Source of the DNA: an uncultured Anaerolineales bacterium | GTDB taxonomy: Bacteria; Chloroflexota; Anaerolineae; B4-G1; SLSP01 | Reading direction: 5' to 3' | NCBI GenBank assembly: GCA_964508025.1 | Contig: CAZDSF010000008.1 | Coordinates: 22,088 to 83,465 of the forward strand | Length of the DNA stretch: 61,378 bases | Shown here: piece after piece, positions 36,370 to 58,444 of the stretch | Layout: the number at the start of each line of letters is the position of its first letter | How positions within the stretch are numbered: position 1 is the stretch's first letter | Notes under the pieces: model-generated | Told to the model about the DNA's origin: nothing | Databases searched by the model: none | The model's input: the letters and a program-made list of their open reading frames with translations, nothing else | Position numbers and translations under genes: made by a program

Positions 36370-39300
36370 ATGGCGATGATGAAGACGCGATGGCTTTCTT
36401 GTCTGTTCCTCCTTGTGTTATTGGCGGCGGCAGGGACGCCTGTTCTGCCCCTGACCGCCGGACCACTCCCCAACACCAAAATTGCTTCCAACCTTGGATT
36501 GTTGCTCACGTTGCTCGTGCGCCCGGAGTCCCTGGCGGAGGATTCGGCTCTGGCGCGAGAGTTGGAGAGCATCCGCAGCACCGGCGCGGTGGCGGTCACG
36601 GCCCGCTTCGAGCGCGAACTCGCGCCTGCCGAGCGCGCTGCATTCGAGGCGTTGGGTGTGATTTTCGAGGAGGTGGGGGGCGAATTGGCGCATCTCGGCC
36701 CCATCTACGGGGTGCGAATTCCGCCGGCGGCGGTTCCAGCGCTGACGGCGCATCCTTTGGTGGTCTGGCTGGAGGCGGTGTGGCAGCCCGTGGCCCTTTC
36801 GCCGTTGGATCTGAGTGTGAGGAACGCGCCGGGGTTCGGCACGTATGTGGACGCGCCCGCCGTTTGGGGGGGGCCTGCGCCGGGCGCGCCCCTCACGGGG
36901 CAGGGGGTGGTGATCGCCGACTTCGATACCGGCGTGGATGTGCTGCATCCGGCGTTTCTGCGCGGGACGTATGGCCCAGGATACTCGAATTGGGACACGA
37001 ATTTCGATGGCGTCTTTACGCCGGGGGTAGATACGTTGGGCGGTGCGATTCTGCGCTTTTGGGATGCCTTTGGCGATCCTTTGGGGACGCCCGGCGTTCT
37101 CGATCTGACGCAGGACTGGATCTATGGCGATACCAACGGCAACAGCAGCTATGACTGGACTGAGCCAATCTACATGCCCTACGATGCCAACAGCAGCGGC
37201 GTGCTGGAAGCCGGCGAGTTCCTGATCCTGCGCGGCAATCTGGGGCCGGGCATTCCTACGAGCAAAATCGCCGCTACGCTGGACGCGCTGGGGACGACGT
37301 ATCAACGGGGCGTCAATCTGGAGCAGACGCCTCCCGATGTGAGCGGGCATGGCACCAGCGTCTCCGGCATTCTGGGCGCGGGCGCAGTCTATTGGGGATC
37401 GCAATACGTCTGGAACCATGCCCAGCGTTACACCGGTCTGGCGCCCGACGCCGATCTGTTGATGGCGGACGCTTTTGGGCTGAATCTCGATCCCGCGCTC
37501 TACATTCCGTGGGCGCAGCAGCACGGCGCGCAGATTATGCTCTACGAATACGGTTCGTGGATCCAGCAGTATCTGGACGGCTCCTCCAATCATGAGCAAA
37601 TGATGGACCTGGCCTCGCAGCAGGGAATTCTCCAGGTGACACCTACAGGCAACCTTCACTGTGGGGGTACAGCGGGCTGCAATCCTCGCCATCTGCAATA
37701 CAGCATTCCCGCAGGGGCGGCGCCCTTCAACCACGTGTTCAACGTGCCGCCGCTTTCGCCGCACTACAGCGACGTGTGGATCACGATGCTCTGGCTGCAT
37801 CCGGCAAACAATCTCACGGTGCAGCTCACCACGCCCACCGGCGGGATGGGGAATACGGTTGCCTTGCCGTGTGTGTTGCCCGGTACAGGCTGGCAGTATA
37901 TGAATACCGCTGATGGGCATCTCATCGGCTGTGAGCGCGCGGTGGATTCCGGTCGCGGTACGGCGATGTACAACATTTGGATCGGCAGGCCGGGACTGGG
38001 CGTGCTCCCCGGCAACTGGATCATGGGCGTGACGAATCTTGCGTCTGTAGCGGAGGCGACGAATTTCTACATTGCGGATAGCGGCAACCAGTGGGCTTTT
38101 GGCGCGGGCTGGCTCAATGCGGGCGGCGGCGCCGAATTGCATACAGCGACCTGGCCCAGCACGTGCGATTCGTGCGTGGGTGTGGCGTCGTATGCGACGC
38201 GCGCCAACTTCATTGGCGCGCCCGGCGCGCTGAGCTGGTTCAGCGGGCGGGGAACGCGCTTTCTCGATGGCGCGTTGATCGTGGATGTGGCAGCGCCCGG
38301 TCACTACGACATCATCACGCCGGAGAGTCGCGCGGTTACGGGGAGCACTGGCTCGTACAATCCCACCTTCGGCGGCACCAGCGCGGCAGGCCCGCATGTA
38401 GCGGGCGTGGCGGCGCTGCTCTATCAATACGCCCAGGGGCAGACATCGCCGTTCTTCATCACCGAGGCGTTGCGCCGTGGGGCGGTGCAGGATGGCGCGA
38501 CCGGCGGTGTGCCCAACGCGAATTGGGGCTACGGCAAGCTGAGCGCGCCCGGCGCGCTGCGCAACATGCTGCACGACCTCGGTGATGCGCCTGCCAGCGA
38601 CAATCATCATGGGGTGGTGATGACGGCTTATCCGGGCGTCCAGGCCCACTTTCCCACAGTTTTCGGCGCGCCGGTACCCGGCCCCTTGCACTGGGCTTCC
38701 AGTGCGCTGATGTTCGGTCCCTGGGATTCGCAACTGGGCGGCCTGGCTTCAGCGGAGGGGGAGGCGGATCGGTGGTATGATGAGGACGGCTTTAACAACC
38801 TGCAACCGCTGCTCGATCTGGCCGATCTGGATCAGCCCGACGACGGCCTGGTATTCCCCGGCCCGGTAGCGCCATGCATGCCGCTGCTGCTCACCATCCA
38901 CGGCGTCATCCCTGGGTTCACGCCGGGGCCGTGGACGCGCTTCGTGAACGTGTGGATTGATGGGAACGCCGATGGGGATTGGGCTGATGTCCACACGTGT
39001 GTAATGCCTAACGATGCGCCAGAGTGGGCGTTGCAGAATGTTTTGGCGCCAGGCCCGTTCCCAGGCGCTTTTGTTCTGGCAATGCCAGTGATGGTGTATC
39101 AGCAGACAGCGGGCGACCCCTTTTGGATTCGCGTTTCGATTGCGGAACAGCTGGCGCCGCTCGACCCCGTTACCGGGCGCGCCGATGGGCGCGGACCGGT
39201 GCTCGGTTATGCGTTTGGCGAAACGGAGGATTATCTCTATCCGCAGACGAATTTCCAGGCTGCGCCCACGACGCAATGCGGCAGCGGCGCGGTAGCCTTT

Positions 39301-40017
39301 ACGCACGATCCCGCGAGCAGCTGGCCCGTCAACTTCACCTGGGATTTTGGCGACGGCATCACGATGACCAATCCCGGCATCAATCCCACCCACACTTATG
39401 CGCAGCCGGGGGTGTACACGGTAACCCTAACCGGCGACTTGTGGGGTGTAGTCTTCAGCGTTTTTCAGCGCCAGGTCACGCTGTATCCACTGCCAGCGGT
39501 AGCCTTCACCAGCGACAGTCCCGTGTGCCTGGGACAGACGATGCACTTTACCGATACCACGCCGGGCGCGACGGCCTGGCATTGGAACTTCGGCGGTGCG
39601 GGGACGCCGGGCGGCGCGCCGCAACAGCCCACCTTCCACTACGCCGCCGCCGGGACGCTGACGGTGACGCTGACGGTGACGGATGTTCACGGCTGCGCCG
39701 CCTCCACCGCTGCGCCGGTGACGGTGCATGGGCTGCCAACGGCGGGCTTCACCGTATCCAGCGCCGAAGTCATGGTGGGCGCGCCGATCACCTTCACCAA
39801 TACGAGCGTCGGCGCGAATGCGTACTTCTGGAATTTCGGTGATGGGGTAGGCGTCTCAACGCTGATACATCCGACCTACGTGTACCCGGCAGCGGGAACC
39901 TTTACGCCCACCCTCACCGCGACAACGCTTCACGGCTGCTCTGATGTTCACAGCCGAGTGTTGCGGGTTTTAGCGTGGCAGCGCGTTTACCTGCCGCTGT
40001 TGATGAAAGGCCCATAG
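36370..40017 (+). CDS. Secreted subtilisin-like S8 serine peptidase with three C-terminal PKD domains
   Basis: Triad contexts VIADFDTGVD (Asp), GHGTSVSGIL (His), GGTSAAGPHVAGVAALL (Ser). Three W(D/N)FGDG...H(T/Y)Y...G.Y.V.L PKD repeats. Ends ...RVYLPLLMKGP. The start could be the ATG at 36376 or 36379 (track 36340). Confidence 0.9.
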   Translation: MAMMKTRWLSCLFLLVLLAAAGTPVLPLTAGPLPNTKIASNLGLLLTLLVRPESLAEDSALARELESIRSTGAVAVTARFERELAPAERAAFEALGVIFEEVGGELAHLGPIYGVRIPPAAVPALTAHPLVVWLEAVWQPVALSPLDLSVRNAPGFGTYVDAPAVWGGPAPGAPLTGQGVVIADFDTGVDVLHPAFLRGTYGPGYSNWDTNFDGVFTPGVDTLGGAILRFWDAFGDPLGTPGVLDLTQDWIYGDTNGNSSYDWTEPIYMPYDANSSGVLEAGEFLILRGNLGPGIPTSKIAATLDALGTTYQRGVNLEQTPPDVSGHGTSVSGILGAGAVYWGSQYVWNHAQRYTGLAPDADLLMADAFGLNLDPALYIPWAQQHGAQIMLYEYGSWIQQYLDGSSNHEQMMDLASQQGILQVTPTGNLHCGGTAGCNPRHLQYSIPAGAAPFNHVFNVPPLSPHYSDVWITMLWLHPANNLTVQLTTPTGGMGNTVALPCVLPGTGWQYMNTADGHLIGCERAVDSGRGTAMYNIWIGRPGLGVLPGNWIMGVTNLASVAEATNFYIADSGNQWAFGAGWLNAGGGAELHTATWPSTCDSCVGVASYATRANFIGAPGALSWFSGRGTRFLDGALIVDVAAPGHYDIITPESRAVTGSTGSYNPTFGGTSAAGPHVAGVAALLYQYAQGQTSPFFITEALRRGAVQDGATGGVPNANWGYGKLSAPGALRNMLHDLGDAPASDNHHGVVMTAYPGVQAHFPTVFGAPVPGPLHWASSALMFGPWDSQLGGLASAEGEADRWYDEDGFNNLQPLLDLADLDQPDDGLVFPGPVAPCMPLLLTIHGVIPGFTPGPWTRFVNVWIDGNADGDWADVHTCVMPNDAPEWALQNVLAPGPFPGAFVLAMPVMVYQQTAGDPFWIRVSIAEQLAPLDPVTGRADGRGPVLGYAFGETEDYLYPQTNFQAAPTTQCGSGAVAFTHDPASSWPVNFTWDFGDGITMTNPGINPTHTYAQPGVYTVTLTGDLWGVVFSVFQRQVTLYPLPAVAFTSDSPVCLGQTMHFTDTTPGATAWHWNFGGAGTPGGAPQQPTFHYAAAGTLTVTLTVTDVHGCAASTAAPVTVHGLPTAGFTVSSAEVMVGAPITFTNTSVGANAYFWNFGDGVGVSTLIHPTYVYPAAGTFTPTLTATTLHGCSDVHSRVLRVLAWQRVYLPLLMKGP

Positions 40018-40138
40018 CTGCGCCTCCGTGAGGTGTGGAATGTGGTGGAGTGAGCGTCAATGGTTGGTGAATTTACATACTGGCGCTTTGGTGCTATAGT
40101 GTAGATGTTCATTTTACACATGCAAAGGAGATCAACTG

Positions 40139-40471
40139 ATGGAAAAGCGGTTCAAGGTGTTGCGCTTTATTGCGACCCTGTGGAAGATTCTCGCCTGGGT
40201 GAGCCTGGTGCTGGGGATTCTGGGGGCGTTGGGGATGTTGATTGGCGGCCTGGCAGGGGGGCTGCTGAGCGACGCGGTGGTGAACGAGATGGGGCTGCGC
40301 GGCTTTGTCAGCGGCACCTTCCTCGGTATTGCGGGATTTCTGGGTCTGCTCATTGGCGCCGCATTGCAATTTCTGTTCTTGTATGCCGCCGGCGAGGTGA
40401 TCTCGGTATTCCTCTCCATTGAGGAAAATACGCGCGCGACGCGGTTGTGGATCGAGCAGAGCGCCCGATAA
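40139..40471 (+). CDS. Small membrane protein
   Basis: 110 aa, 3 TM helices, RBS aaaggag. Confidence 0.5.
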   Translation: MEKRFKVLRFIATLWKILAWVSLVLGILGALGMLIGGLAGGLLSDAVVNEMGLRGFVSGTFLGIAGFLGLLIGAALQFLFLYAAGEVISVFLSIEENTRATRLWIEQSAR

Positions 40472-40483
40472 GGGTGAAGCGAC

Positions 40484-40536
40484 AGGCGGCCCCTGTTCCA
40501 CATGGAGCGGGGGCCGCCTCTTGTTGGTCCTTTTCA
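40484..40536. terminator. Hairpin aggcggcccc / ggggccgcct (15-nt loop) followed by cttgttggtccttttc, between convergent genes
   Basis: Read directly. Confidence 0.5.
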
Positions 40537-41817: not shown

Positions 41818-41898
41818 GAGCTACCTCCTATGAAAGTATGAAGGCTGAAAGCGGAAGGATGAATAAATGCCGAGCATACACCCATTACGCAGTACGCA

Positions 41899-42318
41899 TT
41901 ACTCGTTACTGTGACTGGGCAGGTCGGCGACGGAGAAACTTTCGGGCAGCAGGTCGGCGAGCCGCAATTCGCGGTACGCGCCATCGGGTGTCCCGATGAG
42001 CACGGGCGTGTCCACGTCGGCGAATTCGCGCAGCACTTGCCGGCAGGCGCCGCAGGGTGTGCCGCCGTTAGCGGTGATGACTGCCAGCGCCAGCACCCGC
42101 CGCGCGCCTGCCGCGACCGCAGAAGTGATGGCGACCTGCTCGGCGCAGAATCCCAGAGGATAGACGGCATTCTCCACGTTGCTGCCGGTGAAAGTTTGCG
42201 CTTCCTCTGTGAGTAGCGCTGCGCCCACTTGATAATGCGAGTAGGGCGCGTAGGCCCGTTCCCGCGCCTGAATGGCTGCGTGGATGAGTTGGGTGCGTTG
42301 TGCTGCAGAAAGGCTCAT
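41899..42318 (-). CDS. cdd: Cytidine deaminase
   Basis: CAEQVAI...PCGACRQVLREF, zinc-binding CDA motifs. Confidence 0.9.
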   Translation of the reverse strand: MSLSAAQRTQLIHAAIQARERAYAPYSHYQVGAALLTEEAQTFTGSNVENAVYPLGFCAEQVAITSAVAAGARRVLALAVITANGGTPCGACRQVLREFADVDTPVLIGTPDGAYRELRLADLLPESFSVADLPSHSNE

Positions 42319-43640: not shown

Positions 43641-43662
43641 TATACTTCCTTACTCGTGTGAA

Positions 43663-45042: not shown

Positions 45043-45050
45043 GAGGGCGT

Positions 45051-45140
45051 CTCCTCCAAAATAGTAATTGGTGAGCCGTGAGGGGGTGAGCAGTTTGGGC
45101 ACGGTGAACTGCGTTCTGCTCACTGCGCTCCGCGCTCTGC
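45051..45140 (-). promoter_or_regulatory. Conserved 5'-leader element, copy C (minus strand): ..GCGCAGTGAGCAG..CTGCTCAC..TCACCAATTACTATTTTGGAGGAG, 8 nt before the glmU ATG
   Basis: The reverse complement of 45051-45140 aligns with copies A and B (identical GCAGTGAGCAG, CTGCTCAC, TCACCA(G/A)TTACTATTTT). It heads the glmU-corC-cdd-purA gene string. Confidence 0.5.
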
Positions 45141-45306
45141 GAACTATTTCATCATAAACAAAAAAAGACCCGTTCGCCAGCCATCCACTGGTGTTTCCAG
45201 GTCTTATGGAATCCTCACTCTGTTGGTTCATGTGATTTTAGAATTACCTTGAGTCAAATTATAGCATACTGGAAGGGAAGCGCAACTATAAGGCGGTGTT
45301 TTGGTA

Positions 45307-45334: not shown

Positions 45335-45467
45335 ACTGCGATGCTGGCAGGCAAGTGGCGTGTAGTACCCGGCGCTGAAGAAAAACACAGCTCAGGGATG
45401 TCGGTCATTCTACAGTGTGCAGCACTCGTAGTTCCGAATGCCCTTGCTGCCTTGTGAAGTGAGATTG

Positions 45468-46706
45468 ATGCAGCCGAATCGCAAACAGATTTTTTATGGC
45501 GCTGCTGCCCTGTTGATTATAGCCGGGGCGGCATTGATGTTGTTGGGCGCGCTCTCACCGCGCAGTAACGCTCCGGGTGCGCCGCCCTCATCTGTTACGC
45601 TTACACCGGAGATCGGCGTTGATGTTCCCCTTGCGCCCACTTCGGCAGGTACAGCCACGCCTGAGCCGCTTGTCCCTACGCCGACCGCTACACCCGTGGT
45701 GCTTGCAGAATCTCTTCTGACTGTTACAGTCGCGCCGCCGCCGGCCGATGTCATAGCTGGCTCTTTCCGCATGCCAGAACGCGAGCGCTGGCGCGTGGGG
45801 ATTTCGCTGCCGCAGCTCGCAACAACGCTCGATCCTGCCACGGAAATGCATTTGCGCGCCTTGCGCGTGGGTTGGGTGATGAACTGGTGGGGGGATTTAC
45901 CGCCCGCAATGCCGCTGGGAGTGCGCTACGCGCGCACGGTGCGTTTCAAGTACGGTGTGCTGATGCCGGAGGCGCATCAGCTAATAGACCTCGCCCGTGA
46001 GAATCCCGGTGCGCTCTGGCTCATCAGTAACGAGGCTGATGTACGCTGGCAGGATAATGTGGATGCCGTGACCTATGCGCGGCTCTATCACGAGGCTTAT
46101 ACCGCGATCAAGGCGGGCGATTCCAGTGCGGTCGTCGCCGCCGGCGGCATAGCGCAGCCCTCGCCGCTACGATTGCGCTATCTGGATGCCGTTCGCGCGG
46201 CGTATCTGGAGATTTACGGCGCGCCTCTGCCGATGGATGCCTGGCATATCCACAACTATATGTTACGCGAGGAGCGCGATTCCTGGGGAGTAGATATTCC
46301 GCCGGGAATGCCCGATGATCGCGGCGTTCTTTATGAGATTGAAGATTCAGGCAATCTGGAGCTTTTTCAGGAGCAGATTGTGGCTTTTCGCGCCTGGATG
46401 GCGGCGCATGGGTATCGGGATTTGCCGCTGATCATCTCGGAATTTGGCATTGCGATGCCGGAGGATTACGGCTTCTCGCCGGAGCGGGTACAGGTGTTTC
46501 TGCGCGAGACATGGCGCTTTTTTGCTACGGCAACGGATACCGAACTTGGGCATCCCGGTGATGGGTATCGGTTGGTACAACAGTGGTGCTGGTATGGATT
46601 GACTGACACCATGTACCCAACAGGCAACCTTATCGAACCGGAAACGGGTGCATGGACGCATCTTGGGCGGGCGTGGCTGGCGATTGTTGGCGTGCCGCTG
46701 GATTGA
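45468..46706 (+). CDS. Membrane-anchored clan GH-A glycoside-hydrolase-like protein (Glyco_hydro_cc-like) with PT-rich linker
   Basis: N-terminal TM, TPEPLVPTPTATP linker, ISNEAD (acid/base NE), IISEFG (nucleophile). Clear paralog of the 55328 gene. Confidence 0.6.
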   Translation: MQPNRKQIFYGAAALLIIAGAALMLLGALSPRSNAPGAPPSSVTLTPEIGVDVPLAPTSAGTATPEPLVPTPTATPVVLAESLLTVTVAPPPADVIAGSFRMPERERWRVGISLPQLATTLDPATEMHLRALRVGWVMNWWGDLPPAMPLGVRYARTVRFKYGVLMPEAHQLIDLARENPGALWLISNEADVRWQDNVDAVTYARLYHEAYTAIKAGDSSAVVAAGGIAQPSPLRLRYLDAVRAAYLEIYGAPLPMDAWHIHNYMLREERDSWGVDIPPGMPDDRGVLYEIEDSGNLELFQEQIVAFRAWMAAHGYRDLPLIISEFGIAMPEDYGFSPERVQVFLRETWRFFATATDTELGHPGDGYRLVQQWCWYGLTDTMYPTGNLIEPETGAWTHLGRAWLAIVGVPLD

Positions 46707-46715
46707 GAGGCCAGG

Positions 46716-47753
46716 GTGGAGGGAAACGGTATTCACGCATCGAAAACGGCTCCCGGCGCCGGATGGCTGCGGGTAGCGCGCTGGCTGCTGGCACTTGTGG
46801 TCGCCGCGCTCTCAATCTGGTGGCTATTGACCCGTGATCTGGATTGGCGCGAGGTCATGGCGGCGCTCCGCACGGCCAATTATGGCTGGGTATTGCTCGG
46901 CGTGGGGGCGGTGATAGGGACGGCATTGGCGCGGGCGCAGCGGTGGCGGTTGCTGCTGTGGCAGGCAGATGTGGGGCTGAAAGCCGCGTTGACGGGGCTG
47001 TTGGTGGGGCAGGTTGGCAATATGATTGTGCCTCGCGGCGGCGATGTGGTGCGGGCGGTGTGGATCGCCCCGGAGAAGCGCACCGGCGCGCCGGAGGCGC
47101 TGGGAGCTATCGTGGTGGAGAAATTCGCCGATCTGTTGGCGCTGTTTGGTTGCGGCTTATTGCTCTTGTTATGGGGCCCTTCCCCGGACTGGTTAACGCG
47201 CTCGACGGAACGGCTGGCTGTTGTGTTGGCGGTGGGGTTGCTAGGGTTGCTGGTGATCTTCTATTGGCGCCCGACGTTGTTGGAACGTATCGCGGGGAAG
47301 CTTGCGGCGCCGCTGGGCGCTTGGGGCCACAAGGGGCTACACCTGGCTCGCCGAATGGGGCGCGGATTGGCCTCGGTGCGCCAACCGGCAATCGTTGCGC
47401 AGGTGTTAGTGTGGACGGTGTTCTACTGGGGGCTGGGCATTGCTACGAATTGGTTGGTGTTGCAGGCTTTCGATGCGCCGAATAGTTTTGGCATTCCGGC
47501 GCTGTCTACCGCGGTGTTGCTGATGGTGGCGCTGATGGCGGGCGCAGCGATTCCCGTGCCCGTTGGTCTGGGGGTGTTCGAAGGAATCTGTGTGGCGGTG
47601 TTGACTGCGGCGGGCATTTCGCCGGATGTGGCGTTAGCGGCGGGAGTGGTGCTGCATGTGACGGTGATGGGGCCGCCGGTACTCCTGGCGCTGCTGCTGG
47701 CGCTGCTTTCGGGACGCAATCTCTATAGAAGGACGGCGCATGAAAGAGCCTGA
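46716..47753 (+). CDS. Flippase-like membrane protein (lysylphosphatidylglycerol-synthase TM region / UPF0104 family)
   Basis: GTG start. 8 TM helices. LRTANYGWVLLGVGAVIGTALARAQRWRLLL pattern typical of PF03706. Confidence 0.6.
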   Translation: MEGNGIHASKTAPGAGWLRVARWLLALVVAALSIWWLLTRDLDWREVMAALRTANYGWVLLGVGAVIGTALARAQRWRLLLWQADVGLKAALTGLLVGQVGNMIVPRGGDVVRAVWIAPEKRTGAPEALGAIVVEKFADLLALFGCGLLLLLWGPSPDWLTRSTERLAVVLAVGLLGLLVIFYWRPTLLERIAGKLAAPLGAWGHKGLHLARRMGRGLASVRQPAIVAQVLVWTVFYWGLGIATNWLVLQAFDAPNSFGIPALSTAVLLMVALMAGAAIPVPVGLGVFEGICVAVLTAAGISPDVALAAGVVLHVTVMGPPVLLALLLALLSGRNLYRRTAHERA

Positions 47754-48726
47754 GATTTCGATCATCATTCCCGCGTATCAGGCGGCGGATATTATTGGGG
47801 ACTGTGTTGCCGCGTTGCATCAACAGACGTTTCCGCGGGCGCGTTATGAGATTTTGGTCGTAGATGACGCTTCGACGGATGGGACGGCAGCGGCAGCGCA
47901 AGCAGCGGGCGCGGATCGGGTGCTGACGATTGCGCATCAAGGGCCTTCGGGGGCGCGGAATGCCGGCGTCGCGGCGGCGCGGGGTGGGATTGTGCTGTTC
48001 ACGGATGCGGACTGTGTTCCCGGCCCGGAGTGGGTGGCGCGCATGGCTGCGCCTTTCGACGATCCGGCGGTGATGGGCGCCAAGGGCACCTATCGCACCC
48101 GGCAACCGGGGCTGATGGCGCATCTGGTGCAGCTGGAATTTGAGATCCGCTACGCGCGCATGGCGCGCTTGCCGCAGATTGACTTTGTGGATACCTACGC
48201 GGCGGCGTATCGCCGGGCGTTGTTGCAGGCGTGCGGCGGCTTCGATACCGCTTTTCCGATCCCTTCTGCGGAGGATGTGGAGCTCTCGTTCCGGCTGGCG
48301 CGGCAGGGGAATCGTTTTGTCTTTGTTTCTGATGCGTGGGTGTGGCATCGGCATCCCAGCCGGTTGCGCCAGTACCTGCTGCGCAAGGGACGCTATGGTT
48401 ACTGGCGCGCGCTGCTCTATCTGCGCTATCCCGACAAAGCCGGCGGCGATGCGCATACGGATCCCATGCTTAAATGGCAGCTGTTGCTGGCAGCGCTGCT
48501 GTTGTTGCTGCTGGCGGGCGGCGCGCTATGGTCGCCGCTCTGGATTGGCGCGCTGGCGGCGTTGCTGGGTTTTCTGCTCACCACGCTTCCTTTTGTGCGC
48601 TGGGCCTGGACGCGGGATCGCGCGGTGGCGCTGGTCTGGCCCTGGGTCACGCTGATACGCTCGGTGGTGCAGGGCGTTGGGTTGGCCTGGGGACTGTTGC
48701 GGCACGGCTTGTTATCCAGAGTATGA
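47740..48726 (+). CDS. GT2 glycosyltransferase with C-terminal TM helices (polyprenyl-phosphate sugar synthase-like, GtrB/Ppm1 type)
   Basis: ISIIIPAYQ...ILVVDDASTDGT...LFTDADCVP, then two C-terminal TM helices. Confidence 0.85.
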   Translation: MKEPEISIIIPAYQAADIIGDCVAALHQQTFPRARYEILVVDDASTDGTAAAAQAAGADRVLTIAHQGPSGARNAGVAAARGGIVLFTDADCVPGPEWVARMAAPFDDPAVMGAKGTYRTRQPGLMAHLVQLEFEIRYARMARLPQIDFVDTYAAAYRRALLQACGGFDTAFPIPSAEDVELSFRLARQGNRFVFVSDAWVWHRHPSRLRQYLLRKGRYGYWRALLYLRYPDKAGGDAHTDPMLKWQLLLAALLLLLLAGGALWSPLWIGALAALLGFLLTTLPFVRWAWTRDRAVALVWPWVTLIRSVVQGVGLAWGLLRHGLLSRV

Positions 48727-50105
48727 TGAGGCGCGGCGAGGCGGCAGCAAGCGGCGCTGTAAGACGAGCGGGTGGGATTATCGGCGGGGTCGCCGGAGCC
48801 GCGCTGACAGTCTTCATCCTCACGGGGGCGCGGGATCTCACATGGGCGCACTGGGGCGCGGATGGCGGGGATTTTATCGCGGCGGCGGTCATGGGACGCG
48901 CGCCCCATCCGCCGGGATTTCCGGTCTACATGGCGCTGGCGCGGTTGGCGATGCGGTTGCCCTTTGGGACGTCGGCCTGGCGCATGAATCTGCTCTCGGC
49001 AGTGATGGCAGCCGCAACTGTGGGGCTTTTCGCTGCTCTGGTGTTGCGCCGTGGGAAGGATCCCGTTGTTGCCGTTGTGTCCGCGCTGGCGCTTGCTTTT
49101 GCGCCGCTTCTGTGGTCGCAAGCCCTCATCACGGAAGTGTACACCACAGCCGCTTTCTTCGCCGTTCTGACCCTATTCCTGGCATGGACATTGCCGCGCG
49201 AGAATCCAGGCATCTTTGTGGGTGGTCTGGCGTGGGGCTTGGGGCTGGCGGCGCATCCTACGCTGATTTTTCTCGCGCCGTTGTGGTGGGGGATACCGCG
49301 ACGCTCCATCCCGGCGTTGGTCGGCGGCGTAGCGATTGCTCTGCTGCCTTATGCGTTGCTGCCGTTATGGGTTTCTGGGCCGCAGCCGTGGGGGGATTTG
49401 CGCACCGTTGCAGGTTGGTGGGAGTTTGTGACAGCGCGCTTGTATTGGGGCTATGCTTTCGCGCTACCGTTGCCGGATTGGCCCCGGCGACTGTTGGCAT
49501 GGGGCGCGTTGCTGGCGCGGCAGTTCACGCCACCGGGCGCGTTGTTGGGGGTGCTGGGTCTTGGGGCTTTGTGGCAGCAGGAGAAGACGTTGCTATGGCG
49601 CACCGGTTTGGCTTTCGGCGCGGCGAGCCTGTATGCCGTTGGTTACAATACCGCCGATTCACTGGTATATCTAGTGGTGTTTCTGGCGTTGCCGGCGCTG
49701 TGGCTGGCAGAGGGGCTGGCATGGCTTGCGCGGCAACCGGGATGGGGGAACGCGCGGTGGGGCGCGGTGGTGCTGCCGTTGGCGGCATTGCTTTGGCATT
49801 GGGGGCCGCTTGACGTGCGCCAGGATGTAGCGGCGCGCCAGTGGTGGGAAGCGGTCATGGCTCAGGCGCCTGCGGAGGCGGTGCTGGTGACGGCGGAAGA
49901 TGCGCATACCTTCACGCTCTGGTATGCACAAGAGGTCTTGGGGGTGCGGCCCGACGTCACTGTGGTGGATCGGGATCTGTGGGCGCAGCCGGGTTATCGT
50001 GACTTCATCGCGTCGCAGCGGGGGCAGCCGGCGATATCTCTGGAGGCCCTGGCGGTGGGACGCGCTTTGTGTGATGTGACAGCTACAGGAGTGACGTGCC
50101 CGTGA
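48723..50105 (+). CDS. DUF2723 (TMEM260-like) GT-C fold membrane glycosyltransferase
   Basis: ATGA overlap with the GT2 stop. DFIAAAVMGRAPHPPGFPVYMALARL...WRMNLLSA. 10+ TM helices. Confidence 0.65.
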   Translation: MMRRGEAAASGAVRRAGGIIGGVAGAALTVFILTGARDLTWAHWGADGGDFIAAAVMGRAPHPPGFPVYMALARLAMRLPFGTSAWRMNLLSAVMAAATVGLFAALVLRRGKDPVVAVVSALALAFAPLLWSQALITEVYTTAAFFAVLTLFLAWTLPRENPGIFVGGLAWGLGLAAHPTLIFLAPLWWGIPRRSIPALVGGVAIALLPYALLPLWVSGPQPWGDLRTVAGWWEFVTARLYWGYAFALPLPDWPRRLLAWGALLARQFTPPGALLGVLGLGALWQQEKTLLWRTGLAFGAASLYAVGYNTADSLVYLVVFLALPALWLAEGLAWLARQPGWGNARWGAVVLPLAALLWHWGPLDVRQDVAARQWWEAVMAQAPAEAVLVTAEDAHTFTLWYAQEVLGVRPDVTVVDRDLWAQPGYRDFIASQRGQPAISLEALAVGRALCDVTATGVTCP

Positions 50106-52102
50106 GGGCGTCATGGAGGTGCAGGGTGGGGCAATGGGATCGCTGGCGCGAGACGCTGTTGGATCCACGCAATCTCAAGCGGATTGCGTGGGCTTGTGTG
50201 GTGCTGGGCGTACTGCTGGTGGGTGTCTGGGGGGTACAAGTGCTGCGGGCGGCGTGGTCGCTGCAAGCCCGTCTGAACGAAGTGGAGGCTCTGATCGAAG
50301 GCGATCCTCTGGAGACGCTCAAGGCGGAGCCTCAACGTTTCGAGACGCTGCTCTATGCCTTGCGGCGTGATGTGGTGACCTTGCGCTCGGCGCGTGGGTT
50401 GACGCCGCTGGGACGGGCTTTCGGCTGGCTGCCCAAGGTCGGCCCGCTGTTGGCGCAGGCGACGCCGCTTCTGGATCTGGCGGATGGGTTGAGCGAAGCG
50501 GGGGTGCTGGCCTGGACGGGCTATCGTCCGCTGCTTGAGGATTGGCAGGCGGGGCGACTTTCAATCGAAGGGCTGGCGGCGCGGGTGACGGCGGGGACGC
50601 CTTACGCAGTGGCGGCGCAGCGTCCGGCGCAACGCGCGCTGGCGGCGCGCCAACAGCTCGATGTCACTGCTTTGCCGTATCGCTTCCAGGGGCCGTTGAC
50701 CCAATTGGATGCCCTGTTGCCTTTGCTGGCGGATGGGCTGATGCTGGCGGAGCACGCGCCGGATTTGTTGGGGATGGCAGGGCCGCGCACCTACCTGATT
50801 CTGGCCTTGAATGAAGATGAGCTCCGTCCTGGCGGTGGATTCATTACCGCGGTTGGAGAGGTGCGCCTCGAATCTGGAAGGATTGTTGGTCTGGAGTTCC
50901 GCGATAGCTATGCGGTGGATGATTTTTCACAACCTTATCCCAGCCCGCCGGAACCGCTACAGCGTTTCATGGGCGTGCAGCTGTGGGTTTTTCGGGATAG
51001 CAACTGGTCGCCGGACTTTCCTACCGCCATGCGGGATGGGCTGCCCCTCTATCGTCCGCAACACGCGCCCACGGTTGACGGCGTGATTGCATTGGATCAG
51101 CGCGCGGTGCAGCGGCTTGTGGGCGCCTTCAGTCCCCTGACCGTGGCCGGGGTGGATGAAGCCGTAACAGAAGAGAACATCGTGGCGTTTATGCAAGCAG
51201 CGTGGGCGCCGGATGATGGGGTGCTTGACCGGGAGTGGTGGCAGCAACGTAAATCGTTCATGGGCGATCTTGCGGCGGCGGTGCTGGCGCGCGCGGAACG
51301 CGGTGATGTGAATTGGCCGCAGCTGTTGCGGGAATTGATGACGGTGCTGAATCAGAAACACATACAGGTCTATTTGGAAGGCTCAGCAGCGGCAGTTTTG
51401 CGGCAACGTGGTTGGGATGGTGCGCTCCGCGAGCCGGCGGGGGATTTGCTGTTGCTGGCCGAGGCGAATGTGGGGTACAATAAGGTCACGCCCCGAATCC
51501 GCCGCTCGGCGCAGTATGGGGTGGATTTGAGCCTCGCGCCGCCCCGCGCGCAGTTGCAGGTGACGTACACGCACACTGGCAAGGTTCCTTATCCCTGTAC
51601 GCCTGAGGTGCGTTATGATCCTGTGTACGAAGCGATGATGAATCGCTGCTATTGGGCTTATGTGCAGGTATTCGCGCCGGCAGGGATCACCTTGTTGGAA
51701 GCGAGCCGCCATCCGATTGCCGCAGAGGCGGTGTGGACGCGGGAGGCGTGGGACGGCGCCCCCATCGTGACCTCCGTCGCCGACGGATACACACGAGTGG
51801 AGCAGGCGTTCTTGCTGGCGCCGGGCGAGACTACGACGCTCGCTTTGGATTACGAACTATTGGTTTCAGTGTTGCAACGCGAGGGCCAACAGGTTACGTA
51901 CCGCTTGGACTTCCAAAAGCAGGCGGGACTGGCCGAGTTGCCGTTCGAGATAACCTTGCGCCTGCCGGAGAATGCGGTATTATGGTCAGCGCAGCCGGCG
52001 CCGACCGCGACGATGGGCAATGTGCTGTTGTTCAAAGGGCTAATGGTGCAGGATTTGGATTTCCGTGTGCAATACCTTGAGGGAGAGAGAGCATCGCCAT
52101 GA
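50096..52102 (+). CDS. DUF4012-like membrane-anchored periplasmic protein
   Basis: N-terminal TM. LILALNEDELRPGGGFITAVGEVRLESGRIVGLEFRDSY resembles the DUF4012 core. The start is per the track; the printed sequence near 50096-50101 could not be reconciled to the base. Confidence 0.5.
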   Translation: MPVRASWRCRVGQWDRWRETLLDPRNLKRIAWACVVLGVLLVGVWGVQVLRAAWSLQARLNEVEALIEGDPLETLKAEPQRFETLLYALRRDVVTLRSARGLTPLGRAFGWLPKVGPLLAQATPLLDLADGLSEAGVLAWTGYRPLLEDWQAGRLSIEGLAARVTAGTPYAVAAQRPAQRALAARQQLDVTALPYRFQGPLTQLDALLPLLADGLMLAEHAPDLLGMAGPRTYLILALNEDELRPGGGFITAVGEVRLESGRIVGLEFRDSYAVDDFSQPYPSPPEPLQRFMGVQLWVFRDSNWSPDFPTAMRDGLPLYRPQHAPTVDGVIALDQRAVQRLVGAFSPLTVAGVDEAVTEENIVAFMQAAWAPDDGVLDREWWQQRKSFMGDLAAAVLARAERGDVNWPQLLRELMTVLNQKHIQVYLEGSAAAVLRQRGWDGALREPAGDLLLLAEANVGYNKVTPRIRRSAQYGVDLSLAPPRAQLQVTYTHTGKVPYPCTPEVRYDPVYEAMMNRCYWAYVQVFAPAGITLLEASRHPIAAEAVWTREAWDGAPIVTSVADGYTRVEQAFLLAPGETTTLALDYELLVSVLQREGQQVTYRLDFQKQAGLAELPFEITLRLPENAVLWSAQPAPTATMGNVLLFKGLMVQDLDFRVQYLEGERASP

Positions 52103-52665
52103 AGTTGAAGCTGGGTTTGGGATTGGGGCTGTTGGTCGTGTTGTTGTCCTACCTGGCATTGCTGCCGGTGGCCTGGGCCAGTCCGGGGCAATCTGAAGTG
52201 CGGCAGACGGTGCCTACGCCTACGCCTCCCCGAACGCCGGAGCCTGAACCTCCGCCGACGGAGGAGCCGCCTTCGCCACCAACGGAGGAGCCGCCTCTGC
52301 CGACGCCAACGGGAACGCCGGCGCCCGTCTTGCCGACCGCGACGCCGACGCTTGCGGCAACGGCGGTACCGGCGACACCCTCGCCGTCGCCAACGGTTGC
52401 ATTGCTGACACCAACGCTAACAGTCACGCCGGCGCCTTCTGCGACGCCGACGGTAACGCAACCTGCGCCCACGGCAACGCCTGCGGCATCTCCCACGCTC
52501 GTTCTTACAACGCCAGCTCCTACGTTACCGGCGCCGGCCGCAACGCCAACGCCGGTACTCCCATCGTCGGAACGTGGCTTCTCGCCGTTGGTATTTGGGG
52601 GTGGGTTCCTTATGCTTCTTGGCCTGGGTGCGTTCTTGCTATCCCGGCGCCGTTCCGATGGGTGA
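52099..52665 (+). CDS. Pro/Thr-rich surface protein with signal peptide and C-terminal TM plus RRRSDG tail
   Basis: MKLKLGLGLGLLVVLLSYLALLPVAWA; about 120 aa of PT repeats; ...LPSSERGFSPLVFGGGFLMLLGLGAFLLSRRRSDG. Confidence 0.6.
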   Translation: MKLKLGLGLGLLVVLLSYLALLPVAWASPGQSEVRQTVPTPTPPRTPEPEPPPTEEPPSPPTEEPPLPTPTGTPAPVLPTATPTLAATAVPATPSPSPTVALLTPTLTVTPAPSATPTVTQPAPTATPAASPTLVLTTPAPTLPAPAATPTPVLPSSERGFSPLVFGGGFLMLLGLGAFLLSRRRSDG

Positions 52666-52695
52666 GTGCTGTGTTGTTAAATCCAGAGGTGTGAT

Positions 52696-53757
52696 ATGAG
52701 AAAGCATCGTATTGCAGTTGTTGTTTGCTTGTTGCTGGCAATATTGGCGGGAATTCCGGCTGAGAGCACGCTGGCGAATGCGGTGACGCCGTTCCTCGCT
52801 GAGTATCCTGTGCCTGGTAAGCCGCAAGCTGTCGCCGTCGAGGCGCCGAATCGCGTGTGGTTCACGTTGCCGGAAGCAAATCTGATTGGACGGCTGGTGG
52901 TGACTTCGACCACGCAGTTTGCGGTGACAACGTTCCCCGTACCTACGGCTGCGAGCCAGCCCTACGACTTGAAAGTTGCAGGTGGCTATGTGTGGTTCAC
53001 GCAACGCACTGGCAACAAGATCGGGCGGCTACAGCCGACGACGGGCGTGATCACCGAGTATCCTGTTCCCACATCTGGCAGCGAGCCGACGGGGATCGCG
53101 GTCTTGACAGGAGCCTCTGTGACGAACGTATGGTTCACCCAACGCACTGCCAATCAACTGGGACGATTGGTCATCACCGGCACGACTACCTCTAAGATGT
53201 ATGAGTACCCGCTGCCGGCGGCGTTCCCCAATGCGTACCCGCAGGATGTGGCAATTTATGGGGCCGATAGCATTTGGTTTACTGCGCCTGGGGTAGGGCG
53301 TGTGGGGGAATTCAAGCCCTCGTTGGTGGGAGGGATGTTCAATCCTTTTGAGATGTTGTTGAGCGGCGGGGAGCCGTGGTCTATTGCAACGGGCGGCGGC
53401 AGCCTGGCGGTCTGGTTCACGGATCGTAGCGGCAATCGGCTCGGCGCTTACTATCCGCAGACGATCTCCAATTTCTTCTGGTATCCGTTGCCGGCAAATA
53501 ATAGCAATCCGTATGATGTGGTGGTCAGGCAAGGGCGTATCTGGTTCACACAGGAGACCGGCTGGCGTGTGGGCGAGGTGAACGCGCAGTCTGGCGCAAT
53601 CTATGAATATGGCGTTGGCGCCACGTTGCGCGGCCTCGATGTGGATGCTAACGGGCATGTGTGGTTTGCTGAACATGGCGCAAACAAGATCGGTGAGTGG
53701 CGTCCTCCGTATTTCTACCGGGTGATGTTGCCGCTCGTGCTCAGAGCATATCCGTAA
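52696..53757 (+). CDS. Secreted Vgb-like (streptogramin-lyase-type) beta-propeller repeat protein
   Basis: Signal peptide. About 7 repeats of ..VWFTQRTGNKIGRL / VWFTLPEANLIGRL / IWFTQETGWRVGEV. Ends ...YRVMLPLVLRAYP. Confidence 0.55.
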   Translation: MRKHRIAVVVCLLLAILAGIPAESTLANAVTPFLAEYPVPGKPQAVAVEAPNRVWFTLPEANLIGRLVVTSTTQFAVTTFPVPTAASQPYDLKVAGGYVWFTQRTGNKIGRLQPTTGVITEYPVPTSGSEPTGIAVLTGASVTNVWFTQRTANQLGRLVITGTTTSKMYEYPLPAAFPNAYPQDVAIYGADSIWFTAPGVGRVGEFKPSLVGGMFNPFEMLLSGGEPWSIATGGGSLAVWFTDRSGNRLGAYYPQTISNFFWYPLPANNSNPYDVVVRQGRIWFTQETGWRVGEVNAQSGAIYEYGVGATLRGLDVDANGHVWFAEHGANKIGEWRPPYFYRVMLPLVLRAYP

Positions 53758-53867
53758 TGCCTTTTCAGAGGACACGAGATTGCAGGTGGGACTGGAGAAT
53801 ACGTTAGCGTTCTCCGGTGTCCTTGTGCATTTCGAAAGACAGTAAGGTGTAGTTTTAGGAGATTGTG

Positions 53868-55334
53868 ATGCGGTTTCTATGGCGTGGTTACAAATCGGCT
53901 GCTGTGGCTCTGTTCCTCGTGGGATTATGTGTGGCGTTATCGGCGCCGGCGACACCGACAGTAGGGCTGAATGGCATTCCAATTGAGTCTGAATGGCTGC
54001 CGACGGAGATTGAATCTGGGCCGGTTCTGGGGCACAAGTTGTTTCTGCCTTTCATTTTCAAAAATCACGCTCCTACTCCTCCGGAAACGTTGTTTGGAGT
54101 TCAGATGTACGGTTCGTGGGTTACGAATGACAACTCTCTCGGTCTGGCTCGTGTAGCGCGGGTATCATGGATACGCTGGCCGATCTCCTGGTCGCAAATC
54201 GAACCGGTTAATGTCAGCCCGAGTCAGTACAGCTGGGCAGCAACGGATGCGGCGATTGCCAAAGTTATTGCTTCAGGACACCGGCCGATTATAACGATTG
54301 CGAGCAACCCATCCTGGGCAGCGACTTATGCACAAGGGCCAATAGATAGGGTTAGTCTTTTGGAGTTTGCTGAATTTGTTGAAGAACTCGTGGAACGCTA
54401 TGACGGTGATGGCTACTGTGACGCTCCTGGATCACCAGTAGTTCGCTACTGGGAGTTTTACAATGAGCCAGATGCGTACAATCGTTGGGCAGCGGAGCAA
54501 GGATATGGGGCATATTGGGGAATGCATGGTGACCAATATGCAGAAATGTTATGCGCGGTTTATCCGATGATTAAACATGTAAGCCCTGATGCTAAGGTTG
54601 TTCTTGGCGGTATTGCTTATGACTCGTTTCTGGATGAGGGAGGGTCATTTTATCGTAGATTTATAGATGATGTGCTGGATCATGGCGGTGGGAATTGTTT
54701 TGATTATATGAATTTCCACTATTACCCGTCATTTGAGTCGCGTTGGAATGAATACGGTAATGGATTAGTTGGCAAGACTAACTATATGCGTAACAAATTG
54801 GCCCAATACAATCTATCCAAACCCATGATGGTTACAGAGGCTGGTTGGCATAGTAATTTCTACAACAGTCAATTTCCTGGATCCCCAGAAATCCAGAGCC
54901 GTTATGTAGTTAAGCTCTTTGCTCAGGGTGCTGCAGCGCAATTAAACTCTCTCATTTGGTGGTCCTGGATTGATCCCGGTTTGCCTTATGGAGAGAATGG
55001 CTTGCTAAATCAACAATTCGAACCCAAGCCTTCTTTCACTGCTTACCAATTTGCAGCAGAGAAAATCGGGTTAGCACAATTTGATCGCATTGAGCCAACA
55101 GCTTCTGGAGTGGAAGGTTACCGTTTCACAGCTATAAATGGTCGAAAGATTTATGTTTTTTGGTCTGGTGATGGGCAACCGCGCGCTGTAACAGTATCTG
55201 CTACGCAGGCACAATTGAAGAATATGTATGGGCAGCTCGTCCGTATTGTTCGGGATGGAGATGATGGCGTTCTCGATGGCCGGATTCGGGTGGCGGTGGA
55301 TGCGAATCCGGTGTATGTGGAGGTAGATTGGTGA
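53868..55334 (+). CDS. Secreted clan GH-A glycoside-hydrolase-like protein
   Basis: Signal peptide. FYNEPD (acid/base), MMVTEAGW (nucleophile). Post-signal KLFLPFIFKNHAP motif. Moderate-GC composition. Confidence 0.55.
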   Translation: MRFLWRGYKSAAVALFLVGLCVALSAPATPTVGLNGIPIESEWLPTEIESGPVLGHKLFLPFIFKNHAPTPPETLFGVQMYGSWVTNDNSLGLARVARVSWIRWPISWSQIEPVNVSPSQYSWAATDAAIAKVIASGHRPIITIASNPSWAATYAQGPIDRVSLLEFAEFVEELVERYDGDGYCDAPGSPVVRYWEFYNEPDAYNRWAAEQGYGAYWGMHGDQYAEMLCAVYPMIKHVSPDAKVVLGGIAYDSFLDEGGSFYRRFIDDVLDHGGGNCFDYMNFHYYPSFESRWNEYGNGLVGKTNYMRNKLAQYNLSKPMMVTEAGWHSNFYNSQFPGSPEIQSRYVVKLFAQGAAAQLNSLIWWSWIDPGLPYGENGLLNQQFEPKPSFTAYQFAAEKIGLAQFDRIEPTASGVEGYRFTAINGRKIYVFWSGDGQPRAVTVSATQAQLKNMYGQLVRIVRDGDDGVLDGRIRVAVDANPVYVEVDW

Positions 55335-56794
55335 AACGACTATCTGCCGGTATGTGGCGCGTTGCCCTTGCCGGGGTGATGTTGTGGCTGCTCATATCGG
55401 GCATAGCGACGGAGCGTGCATCCGTGGCGGGGAACGCCGGAGATATATTCACCGCGACGACACAAGCCGCGCCCTTGTGTCGCTTTGGCGTGGGCGGCCC
55501 TGGGAACACGCTCAGCTATCCGATTCAGCCGCTGCAACTTGGCTGGTATGTGGATTGGCGGGTGAATAGCAATGCTTCGCCGCCGGCTGGTATGGACTAT
55601 CTACCCATGGTGCGCCTGTCGCAGACCGGCCCCGATTCTTACAGCTACGCGCCGGATCAGAGCGTGCTGGCGACGCTGGCAACCAATCGTCCCGGTATGA
55701 CGTGGTTGATTGGCAATGAGCCGGATCGCCGCCGGTGGCAGGATGATCTTGAGCCGCATGTGTATGCGAAAGCTTATCATGATTTGTATCATATTCTCAA
55801 GGCGGCAGATCCGACAGCGCAGATTGCCGCTGGTGGTATCGTGCAGCCCACCCCCGTGCGCTTGCTTTATCTGGACATGATTCTGGATAACTACCGCCAA
55901 CGCTATGGCGCGCCCATGCCCATAGATGTCTGGAATATTCACGCCTTTATTCTCCGGGAGCGCAGTTGTCAATACTACCCGGAGGATTGTTGGGGGGCCG
56001 AAATTCCTCCCGGCATTGATTGGCCGCAGGGTGAGCTATACGACATTCAAGACAATGACAATCTGGACATCTTCAAGCAGTTTGTGCAGAATTTCCGCGC
56101 CTGGATGGCCTCGCGGGGCTACCAGGATCGGCCTTTGATTATCACCGAGTTTGGCGTGCAGATGCCGGCAATGTATGGCTTCACCGCGCAGCGCGTGAAT
56201 GCCTATATGAACGCCACCTTCGACTATTTGCGTACTGCAACCGGCTCTACAGGCTATCCCGCAGATGGTTATCGTCTGGTTCAGCGGTGGGCCTGGTACA
56301 GTCTGACGGATAACACTTTCAATGGCTGGTTGTTCGACTCGCCGACGCAGCGCACGGTGTTTGGCGACAACTGGGCCGCCTATGTGGCGCAGATTGACCC
56401 TCAAGTGAACCTGGCGCCGGTTAAGCTATGGACCTCGCCCTCGGCGCCTTTCTCGCCCACGGATCCTGTCACGCTCACGTTGGGAGCAACTGTCGTGAAT
56501 AACGGCGACGTGGCATTCACCGGACCTGTAGTGGTGCGTTTCTACGCAGGTACGCCTTCTAGTGGTCAGCAAATTGGCGCGGATCAACTGGTGATGGCGT
56601 TACCTGGGTGCGCAGCAACGACTACGGTCAGCGTGACGATGCCCAACGTGCCTCCCGGCAGGCATCCGGTCTATGTGGTGGTGGATCCTGAGGGGCAGAT
56701 TTCTGAGAGCGATAAGACGGATAATGTGTTGGTCGGGCATGTGCTGGTCGCCACACAACGCTTGTTTTTACCTTTGGTGTCAAGATCGTGGTGA
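55328..56794 (+). CDS. Secreted clan GH-A glycoside-hydrolase-like protein (paralog of 45468) with C-terminal CARDB domain
   Basis: LIGNEPD / LIITEFG. CARDB-like ...VVNNGDVAFTGPVVVRFYAG...VVVDPEGQISESDKTDN. Ends ...RLFLPLVSRSW. Confidence 0.6.
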   Translation: MVKRLSAGMWRVALAGVMLWLLISGIATERASVAGNAGDIFTATTQAAPLCRFGVGGPGNTLSYPIQPLQLGWYVDWRVNSNASPPAGMDYLPMVRLSQTGPDSYSYAPDQSVLATLATNRPGMTWLIGNEPDRRRWQDDLEPHVYAKAYHDLYHILKAADPTAQIAAGGIVQPTPVRLLYLDMILDNYRQRYGAPMPIDVWNIHAFILRERSCQYYPEDCWGAEIPPGIDWPQGELYDIQDNDNLDIFKQFVQNFRAWMASRGYQDRPLIITEFGVQMPAMYGFTAQRVNAYMNATFDYLRTATGSTGYPADGYRLVQRWAWYSLTDNTFNGWLFDSPTQRTVFGDNWAAYVAQIDPQVNLAPVKLWTSPSAPFSPTDPVTLTLGATVVNNGDVAFTGPVVVRFYAGTPSSGQQIGADQLVMALPGCAATTTVSVTMPNVPPGRHPVYVVVDPEGQISESDKTDNVLVGHVLVATQRLFLPLVSRSW

Positions 56795-56806
56795 TCTAAT
56801 CTTTCG

Positions 56807-58417: not shown

Positions 58418-58444
58418 ATCTTGTCGGAGAACTTTTAACTTCTG

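Follow-up and report, generated by a model that had tools for sequence, protein, structure and literature searches.

YLP-box carriers in the window

The stretch of DNA analyzed here, called the window below, comprises 61,378 nucleotides of an uncultured Anaerolineales bacterium (contig CAZDSF010000008.1 of assembly GCA_964508025.1, positions 22,088 to 83,465 of the forward strand). It encodes five exported proteins that carry a short hydrophobic peptide, the YLP-box, either at the extreme C-terminus or shortly after the N-terminal signal segment. A previous reading of the sequence alone (the sequence-only reading) had reported these five peptides, and each of them was recovered exactly from the translated DNA. 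The range given there for the motif, 36370-56794, holds four of the copies, whereas the 21530 gene, although named, lies outside it. The carriers and their boxes are the following.

21530-22363, plus strand: gene of an exported N-proximal carrier (the 21530 protein), with a signal or anchor segment, a leader of about 30 amino acids, the box and a LytM/M23-like fold domain ending DPRSRKDWWRGR
21692-21730, plus strand: N-proximal YLP-box LVFLPLVLSAHNP of the 21530 protein (peptide ESLVFLPLVLSAHNP), with its F near residue 57 and the folded domain directly downstream
36340-40017, plus strand: gene of an exported S8 subtilase (Pfam Peptidase_S8, GEVED and three PKD domains), carrier of a C-terminal box (the S8-PKD protein)
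39982-40014, plus strand: C-terminal YLP-box RVYLPLLMKGP of the S8-PKD protein, tail ...WQRVYLPLLMKGP*, stop codon at 40015-40017
52696-53757, plus strand: gene of an exported Vgb-lyase-like beta-propeller (Pfam Vgb_lyase, 203 bits), carrier of a C-terminal box
53716-53754, plus strand: C-terminal YLP-box YRVMLPLVLRAYP of the Vgb-like protein, tail ...FYRVMLPLVLRAYP*, stop codon at 53755-53757
53865-55334 (start at 53865 or 53868), plus strand: gene of an exported GH5-like glycosidase (Pfam Cellulase/GH5), N-proximal carrier
54033-54074, plus strand: N-proximal YLP-box HKLFLPFIFKNHAP of the GH5-like protein (peptide GHKLFLPFIFKNHAP), with its F near residue 60
55328-56794, plus strand: gene of an exported TIM-barrel glycosidase-like protein with a CARDB domain (Pfam CARDB 30.8 bits, Glyco_hydro_2_C weak), called GH/CARDB here
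56759-56791, plus strand: C-terminal YLP-box RLFLPLVSRSW of the GH/CARDB protein, tail ...TQRLFLPLVSRSW*, stop codon at 56792-56794

The likely start of the S8-PKD gene is the ATG at 36370 (MAMMKTRW...). Judging from the translations, the N-termini of all five carriers are signal-peptide-like or membrane-anchor-like. Codon usage differs among the box copies, so their conservation is at the level of the peptide, and a DNA-level repeat at the gene ends was ruled out on these grounds.

The YLP-box in curated families and in the literature

The sequence-only reading could not match the motif to a described system. However, NCBIfam already curates it in two models, NF050076.1 (sort_motif_YLP; 11 positions) and NF053834.1 (ultrashort_CTERM; 10 positions). 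Both are named "YLP-box putative sorting motif-containing protein". They describe the same motif as the window box, tuned to the canonical C-terminal form Y-L-P-L-V-L-R-N. At cut-offs of 15 bits for NF050076 and 10 bits for NF053834, the GH/CARDB tail passes both models (16.7 and 13.1-13.7 bits, respectively), the S8-PKD tail reaches 14.7 bits with NF050076, and neither model reported the Met-variant Vgb-like tail or the two N-proximal boxes of the window. Formally, one of the five window copies passes and the others are variants by orthologue alignment. Several tails from other loci are matched by these models as well, with scores at the cut-off or slightly below it. The name ultrashort_CTERM covers only the commonest case.

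We found no publication on the prokaryotic YLP-box, its mechanism or its partner. As a putative sorting signal the motif is already known. What is new here are the lineage and positional statistics, the conservation in orthologues at two kinds of position, the disorder of the C-terminal tail, the class of boxes at internal junctions and the coexistence with signals of the LPXTG type. With its existence already on record in NCBIfam, the motif is now of interest for its mechanism.

Lineage distribution and consensus

One genome per GTDB species (185,579 species) was scanned at the DNA level for YLPLVLRN. The pattern was blind to position and limited to CTS and CGN codons, which favours GC-rich genomes. 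At least 119 loci with at least 121 matches were obtained, where we estimate that about nine would be expected by chance. Among the matches listed, to which the counts in this paragraph refer, about 114 of the 119 loci belong to Chloroflexota (Anaerolineae and Thermoflexia); the locus titles are Anaerolineae, Anaerolineales, Thermoflexia, Thermoflexus, "Chloroflexia", Chloroflexota and the unclassified "uncultured bacterium". The five exceptions come from Planctomycetota, Vicinamibacteria, Acidoferrales, a delta-proteobacterium and, in an unclassified bin, the N-terminus of an FtsX-type permease, and it is precisely in these five that the match is far removed from a stop codon. A stop codon follows 0-6 residues past ...LRN in about 95 of the 121 matches, and several matches occur per metagenome-assembled genome (MAG). 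The adenylosuccinate synthase (PurA) of the window is 85% identical to proteins labelled "Anaerolineae bacterium", and its named matches all come from Anaerolineae, Anaerolineales or Chloroflexi MAGs. The named relatives of the window carriers are in agreement, which places the window in an uncultured Anaerolineae-class member of Chloroflexota. The motif is restricted to Chloroflexota. One YLP-tailed Vgb-like protein, P0393 (from the 90%-identity cluster of P0024), is filed as "Candidatus Bathyarchaeia archaeon" (MEM3553585.1); because of this restriction, its contig is probably mis-binned.

The extended consensus is [YH]-[RK]-[IV]-[YF]-L-P-L-V-L-[RK]-N-x-x-P, about 8-13 residues long, with an invariant aromatic-Leu-Pro core. 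Carriers may be dense, with five in the 61 kb of the window and, on a single contig of 8 kb, as many as four carrier genes in a row. Two other identities were discarded: an N-glycosylation sequon in ...RN-x-[ST], as the residues past the Asn are inconsistent, and the pilin YPKN motif, as Arg is preferred over Lys.

Position and export

The regular expression proposed in the sequence-only reading gave six matches in the six-frame translation of all 61,378 bases, namely the five boxes and one spurious open reading frame (ORF) of 33 codons. Within the window ORFs it fell on 3 of 294 tail positions and on 2 of 18,308 interior positions (odds ratio 94, p = 4e-5). Outside the window, non-seed matches to a relaxed motif were counted in ORFs with a complete 3' end from the same loci as the YLPLVLRN scan, a count that is independent of the search pattern. 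Among the matches listed, 20 were found at 3,276 tail positions against 3 at 204,437 interior positions (odds ratio 419, p = 1e-33), so that 20 of the 23 counted had their end 0-6 residues ahead of the stop. The motif is thus positionally constrained, as had been claimed, and not randomly placed. A position-specific scoring matrix built from the outside instances recovered four of the five boxes in the window, with no further match in the six frames; the S8-PKD tail scored 15.4. The enrichment in proteins with signal peptides that the earlier reading anticipated was also observed, as a signal-peptide-like N-terminus is present in 61 of 73 carriers compared with 121 of 333 other ORFs (p = 8e-14).

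Conservation in orthologues

Among the best 120 homologues of the window propeller, 78 have a strict box in their last 16 residues and about 17 more a degenerate one, and the box persists in homologues of only about 35% identity. Of the 78 strict tails, 76 have 0-4 residues after the basic position (+6). An alignment of 76 sequences was inspected for invariant columns, of which there were only nine, the Pro of the box being one. Distant multidomain Vgb homologues have no box. In one distant homologue, P0106, the position of the box is taken by KAPNTG, a transmembrane segment and RRLKR, placed after a choice-of-anchor U domain. A single "long form" was seen in the Vgb-like protein P0077 (residues ~350-400), where an IYLPL box leads into a hydrophobic stretch of some 25 residues and on to HKRRPRRRTRQV. 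Such a form may connect the ultrashort box with the classical tripartite anchor, or it may be an artefact of read-through.

The N-proximal box of the GH5 type is conserved in 74 orthologues as T-x-T-[VL]-F-L-P-[LVI]-V-F-[SR]-N-Y-x-P-P. The FGVQ at which the catalytic domain starts lies 16±1 residues downstream of this box, and the N-terminal hydrophobic segment 32±7 residues upstream of it. Lack of conservation in orthologues, which the earlier reading took as a sign against a true signal, was therefore observed in neither family. Two GH5 orthologues carry tandem N-proximal boxes 13-14 residues apart, P0144 (at 55 and 69) and P0232 (at 41 and 54).

Relation of the box to fold and carrier architecture

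In the AlphaFold2 model of the window propeller, the predicted local distance difference test (pLDDT) is 92, and tail residues 336-353 have a value of about 53 and no secondary structure. The C-terminal tail is thus predicted to lie outside the fold. To be highly conserved and yet outside the domain is the signature of a linear motif that is read by something else. In the model of the 21530 protein, the first 50 residues are of low confidence and the box region (56-62) falls in blocks of pLDDT 81-89.

The carriers include subtilases, glycosidases, lyase-like propellers, parallel beta-helix and DNRLRE-domain proteins, proteins rich in PKD and CARDB domains, and secreted proteins of about 100 residues. 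The box was found on propeller, TIM-barrel, beta-helix, PKD, CARDB and LytM-like folds, in agreement with the earlier description of the carriers as unrelated exoproteins. In the largest carrier cluster (28 loci among the matches listed), a "choice-of-anchor Q" domain (81 bits, NCBIfam) directly precedes the box. We take this name, in the NCBIfam convention, to denote domains that adjoin alternative C-terminal sorting signals. The box occupies the place of classical sorting signals after choice-of-anchor domains, as observed with the Q domain and, in P0106, with the U domain.

The 21530 protein has 702 related clusters among 1.84 billion representative proteins. In many of these relatives the box is located immediately upstream of the LytM-like domain, whatever module precedes it. 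This module may be a signal peptide with its leader (the window protein and P0241), a beta-helix with choice-of-anchor Q (P0245, with the box at 400, and P0246, at 641), PKD-like repeats (P0247, P0256, P0257 and P0296) or other immunoglobulin (Ig)-like modules. Internal boxes were also present among the seed matches, with a CARDB-like domain downstream, in loci L050, L051, L099, L109, L122 and L061 (e.g. PKD-YLP-CARDB). Overall, about 80% of the boxes are at the extreme C-terminus, and the rest either precede the first domain, where a leader of about 30 residues separates them from the signal peptide, or lie at an internal junction. The two kinds of position recognized by the sequence-only reading, C-terminal and N-proximal, were both found, but that picture left out the third class, at internal module junctions. 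Given its N-proximal and internal locations, the box is a mark of module edges rather than a strictly C-terminal signal.

Possible functions of the YLP-box

Several known systems that are based on a tag bound by another protein share features with the YLP-box. Dockerins, which bind the cohesins of cellulosomes, are one tag on many exoenzymes, mostly C-terminal and sometimes N-terminal or internal. However, a dockerin has about 60-70 residues and folds into a calcium-binding module with duplicated loops, borne on a linker, whereas the YLP-box has about 10 residues and abuts the catalytic domain; no Pfam dockerin match was found in any carrier. In the donor-strand complementation of chaperone-usher pili, and of the Pam pili of bacteria of the candidate phyla radiation (CPR), including monoderms, a short strand of alternating hydrophobic residues, which may come from the N-terminus, a linker or a terminal position, fills the incomplete Ig-like fold of a partner (bioRxiv 10.64898/2026.03.03.709456). 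The residue pattern of the box, I-x-L-x-L-x-L, fits such a strand, although its central Pro would be unusual there and the YLP carriers are enzymes and not pilins. The peroxisomal targeting signals PTS1 (a C-terminal tripeptide) and PTS2 (an N-proximal nonapeptide) are likewise ultrashort peptides read by a receptor and exist in C-terminal and N-proximal forms. They are eukaryotic, cytosolic and unrelated in sequence, so the analogy is one of logic only.

The reading that we favour, and to which we would give about an even chance, is that the YLP-box serves as a linear recognition tag for a shared envelope factor, which would retain, sort or process the protein once it has been exported by Sec. 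Chloroflexota of the Anaerolineae and Thermoflexia types attach the box to the edges of folded domains in Sec-exported proteins. The exposed hydrophobic peptide with its basic flanks would then be bound after export, in an extended, beta-strand-like form, by one envelope component, and this component would retain, sort or process the carrier within a multilayered envelope that has no outer membrane. Recognition could end in non-covalent docking, or in cleavage or transpeptidation. Of the models considered here, only non-covalent docking, dockerin-like and possibly through strand augmentation, accounts for all three positions in the same way. The sequence-only reading had proposed a lineage-specific sorting, processing or anchoring signal. 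The lineage, the orthologues, the export of the carriers, the tail outside the fold and the position all agree with this, whereas a sorting function is what we propose from them, and neither an enzyme nor a receptor was found.

A wider proposal can be built on the recognition tag. The box could be the handle of an undiscovered display or sorting system of Anaerolineae- and Thermoflexia-type Chloroflexota, helix-free and independent of position. We put this forward tentatively and would sooner doubt it than rely on it. Such a system might dock dozens of exoenzymes by strands onto an envelope scaffold, as a cellulosome-like display in the inner or outer layer of sheathed filaments, or it might rely on a transpeptidase of a new class, one for which 0-4 residues suffice as the leaving group. 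If true, independence of position and lack of a transmembrane helix would set the YLP-box apart from all characterized bacterial sorting signals. Anaerolineae, which abound in sludge, sediments and hot springs, depend largely on extracellular hydrolysis for their living. A tag on a large share of their exoproteins offers a handle for finding the retention machinery and for predicting the surface proteome from MAGs, and surface display engineering is a possible use.

A number of observations weigh against a recognition tag read by a shared factor. All-against-all clustering of 670 ORFs from the 119 listed loci and the window revealed no general non-carrier neighbour of the carriers that could be the partner gene; the same clustering gave no co-occurring candidate for the processing enzyme that the sequence-only reading had advised looking for. 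The literature offered no experimental evidence of any kind on the YLP-box. The box usually abuts a folded domain and not a long flexible linker, which is unusual for docking tags, and that of the 21530 protein may pack on its own domain, given the pLDDT of 81-89 in the model. The N-proximal boxes often have no basic residue, position +6 being S 24 times, R 17 times and K 9 times. Finally, a cleavage site explains the boxes at internal junctions no less well than a docking tag does.

Such a cleavage site is the first alternative to be considered. A housekeeping extracytoplasmic protease would cut at the box during maturation, splitting modules, freeing enzymes from their leader or anchor and trimming tails, with no anchoring involved. 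The box is always at a module boundary, such as that 16±1 residues before the GH5 domain; it precedes the LytM-like domain whatever lies before, including architectures that elsewhere end at the box (P0245 and P0246), and internal boxes precede CARDB-like domains. Yet about 80% of the boxes are trailed by only 0-4 residues and some by none (YLPLVLR*), so that a cut there would remove almost nothing although the tail is strongly selected. No associated protease was found near the carriers. We regard a maturation site as unlikely, though deserving of serious attention.

The box could also act directly as an interfacial anchor, its hydrophobic heptad and Arg/Lys flanks partitioning into the cytoplasmic membrane on its outer face or into a hydrophobic layer of the envelope. 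Its composition (basic, about seven hydrophobic residues, basic) would suit this role, as would the exposed and flexible C-terminal tail predicted in the propeller model and the extension of the box into a full transmembrane segment with a basic tail in P0077. The sequence-only reading considered the motif too short for a transmembrane anchor, and we agree, because about seven hydrophobic residues broken by an invariant Pro compare with at least ~15-20 for a bilayer span; nor could a helix be formed by so short a stretch with Pro at its centre. A rough estimate from interfacial hydrophobicity scales makes the box only weakly membrane-seeking. Moreover, a purely hydrophobic anchor needs no invariant aromatic-Leu-Pro core, and N-proximal boxes often lack the basic residue. 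The box itself is not a membrane anchor, and interfacial partitioning appears improbable.

Slightly less credible, in our opinion, is a role in cis during export and folding, where the box would make the ribosome pause or arrest, or would recruit a foldase or peptidyl-prolyl isomerase, and in this way coordinate translation, Sec export and folding of large beta-rich exoproteins. The spacing of the GH5 box, 32±7 residues past the hydrophobic core of the signal peptide, and a similar spacing seen by eye in the 21530 protein and in P0089, can be read in this way. About 32 residues is approximately the length of the ribosomal exit tunnel, and Leu-Pro after an aromatic residue is a favoured isomerase substrate. 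The motif is also confined to exported proteins. However, most boxes are at the very C-terminus, at a variable distance of 0-6 residues from the stop, and the box is interchangeable in position with classical anchors after choice-of-anchor domains. Arrest peptides at the ends of ordinary enzymes would, to our knowledge, be without precedent.

A variant substrate of sortases (LPXTG-like) or exosortases is largely refuted by anatomy, and we consider it very unlikely. Like LPXTG, the YLP-box is a short Pro-containing motif, mostly C-terminal, on Sec-exported surface proteins, with a shared "LP" and a basic residue after it. The homologue P0106 carries KAPNTG, the transmembrane segment and the basic tail at the same place, and the NCBI model name ultrashort_CTERM points in the same direction. 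In contrast to LPXTG, the box ([YF]-L-P-L-V-L-[RK]) has no conserved Thr or Gly and no Thr-Gly scissile site, it is followed by neither a transmembrane segment nor a basic tail, it prefers Arg to Lys and it also occurs in N-proximal and internal copies. The LPXTG model TIGR01167 matched no YLP carrier in the NCBIfam profile scan. Other proteins in the same MAGs were seen by eye to end in ordinary LPVTG or LPATG, a hydrophobic segment and a basic tail; the NCBIfam scan gave no TIGR01167 match for these proteins either. From these endings it follows that the YLP-box coexists with sortase-type signals and does not replace them.

The PEP-CTERM/exosortase, PGF-CTERM/archaeosortase and GlyGly-CTERM/rhombosortase systems likewise use tags that are restricted to a lineage and are found at the C-terminus of many unrelated exoproteins, frequently behind a choice-of-anchor domain. 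They are, however, tripartite (motif, transmembrane helix, basic tail) and strictly C-terminal, and the YLP-box is neither. The NCBIfam models for these three tags matched none of the five carriers, in which no transmembrane helix or Arg cluster was found after the motif. Boxes at internal junctions, such as those between a beta-helix and a LytM-like domain, fit poorly with either LPXTG or PEP-CTERM logic. The box is not a tripartite signal of the sortase or exosortase type. Lastly, although the motif is short and made of common residues, its origin by chance, by low complexity or as the last strand of the preceding domain is excluded by the tail odds ratios of 94 and 419, the lineage restriction, the unrelated folds and the disordered tail in the confident propeller model.

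Genomic and envelope context

Three consecutive carrier genes of the window, Vgb-like, GH5-like and GH/CARDB, are located inside an envelope-glycopolymer cluster (45438-61378). This cluster encodes an LPG_synthase_TM flippase-like protein, a GT2 glycosyltransferase, a TMEM260-like GT-C, DUF4012, a PMT_2/STT3-like GT-C, GT87 (giving three GT-C enzymes) and a Wzt ABC ATPase. It has two paralogous TIM-barrel glycosidase-like genes, one at 45438 without a box and the other at 55328 with CARDB and the box. Matching lengths of the longest contigs suggest that the Vgb-like and GH5 families share many metagenomic contigs, so the operon is probably conserved. The G+C content falls from about 0.62 to 0.41-0.48 at 54000-54800 and 56400-59600 (the GH5-like gene, and the PMT_2/STT3-like and GT87 genes), as expected for horizontally exchanged surface-glycan genes.

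The envelope of Caldilineae has no outer membrane and is built of a cytoplasmic membrane, peptidoglycan, an inner layer, a shared outer layer and a protein lattice (PMC13319060). Layers of this type are plausible compartments for holding exoenzymes.

The sole recurrent non-carrier neighbour was a fibre-like coiled-coil repeat protein with a transmembrane anchor, present at 12 of the listed loci beside one small carrier family. The gene pair is located at 4826-7999 in L037, 5335-6882 in L097 and 6367-8000 in L114, and was also seen in L014, L053, L086, L089, L096 and L098. It consists of a secreted Gly-rich protein of about 100 amino acids, ending ...GGFWGG....YRIYLPLVLRN*, and a large coiled-coil repeat protein with an LPxxG-like motif, a transmembrane segment and an RRK tail, which matches weakly the N-terminus of a "mosaic adhesive trimer" fibre. 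The small YLP proteins were compared with the CPR pilus tip PamT, but the score of 29.6 bits against a cut-off of 240 was judged tangential.

Two other groups of genes adjoin carriers in the window. Between the DUF4012 and Vgb-like genes, at 52099-52665 on the plus strand, a Pro/Thr-rich secreted protein of 188 amino acids ends in ...ERGFSPLVFGGGFLMLLGLGAFLLSRRRSDG, a hydrophobic segment with a basic tail. This C-terminus looks like a classical tripartite sorting signal, and its matches to the GVDTG_CTERM (16 bits; cut-off 29), MYXO-CTERM and LPXTG models were all sub-threshold. The same gene order was found in L001 and L002. Directly 3' of the 21530 gene, at 22453-27755 on the plus strand, there are genes for a MoxR AAA+ ATPase, DUF58 and DUF4129, and one further ORF.

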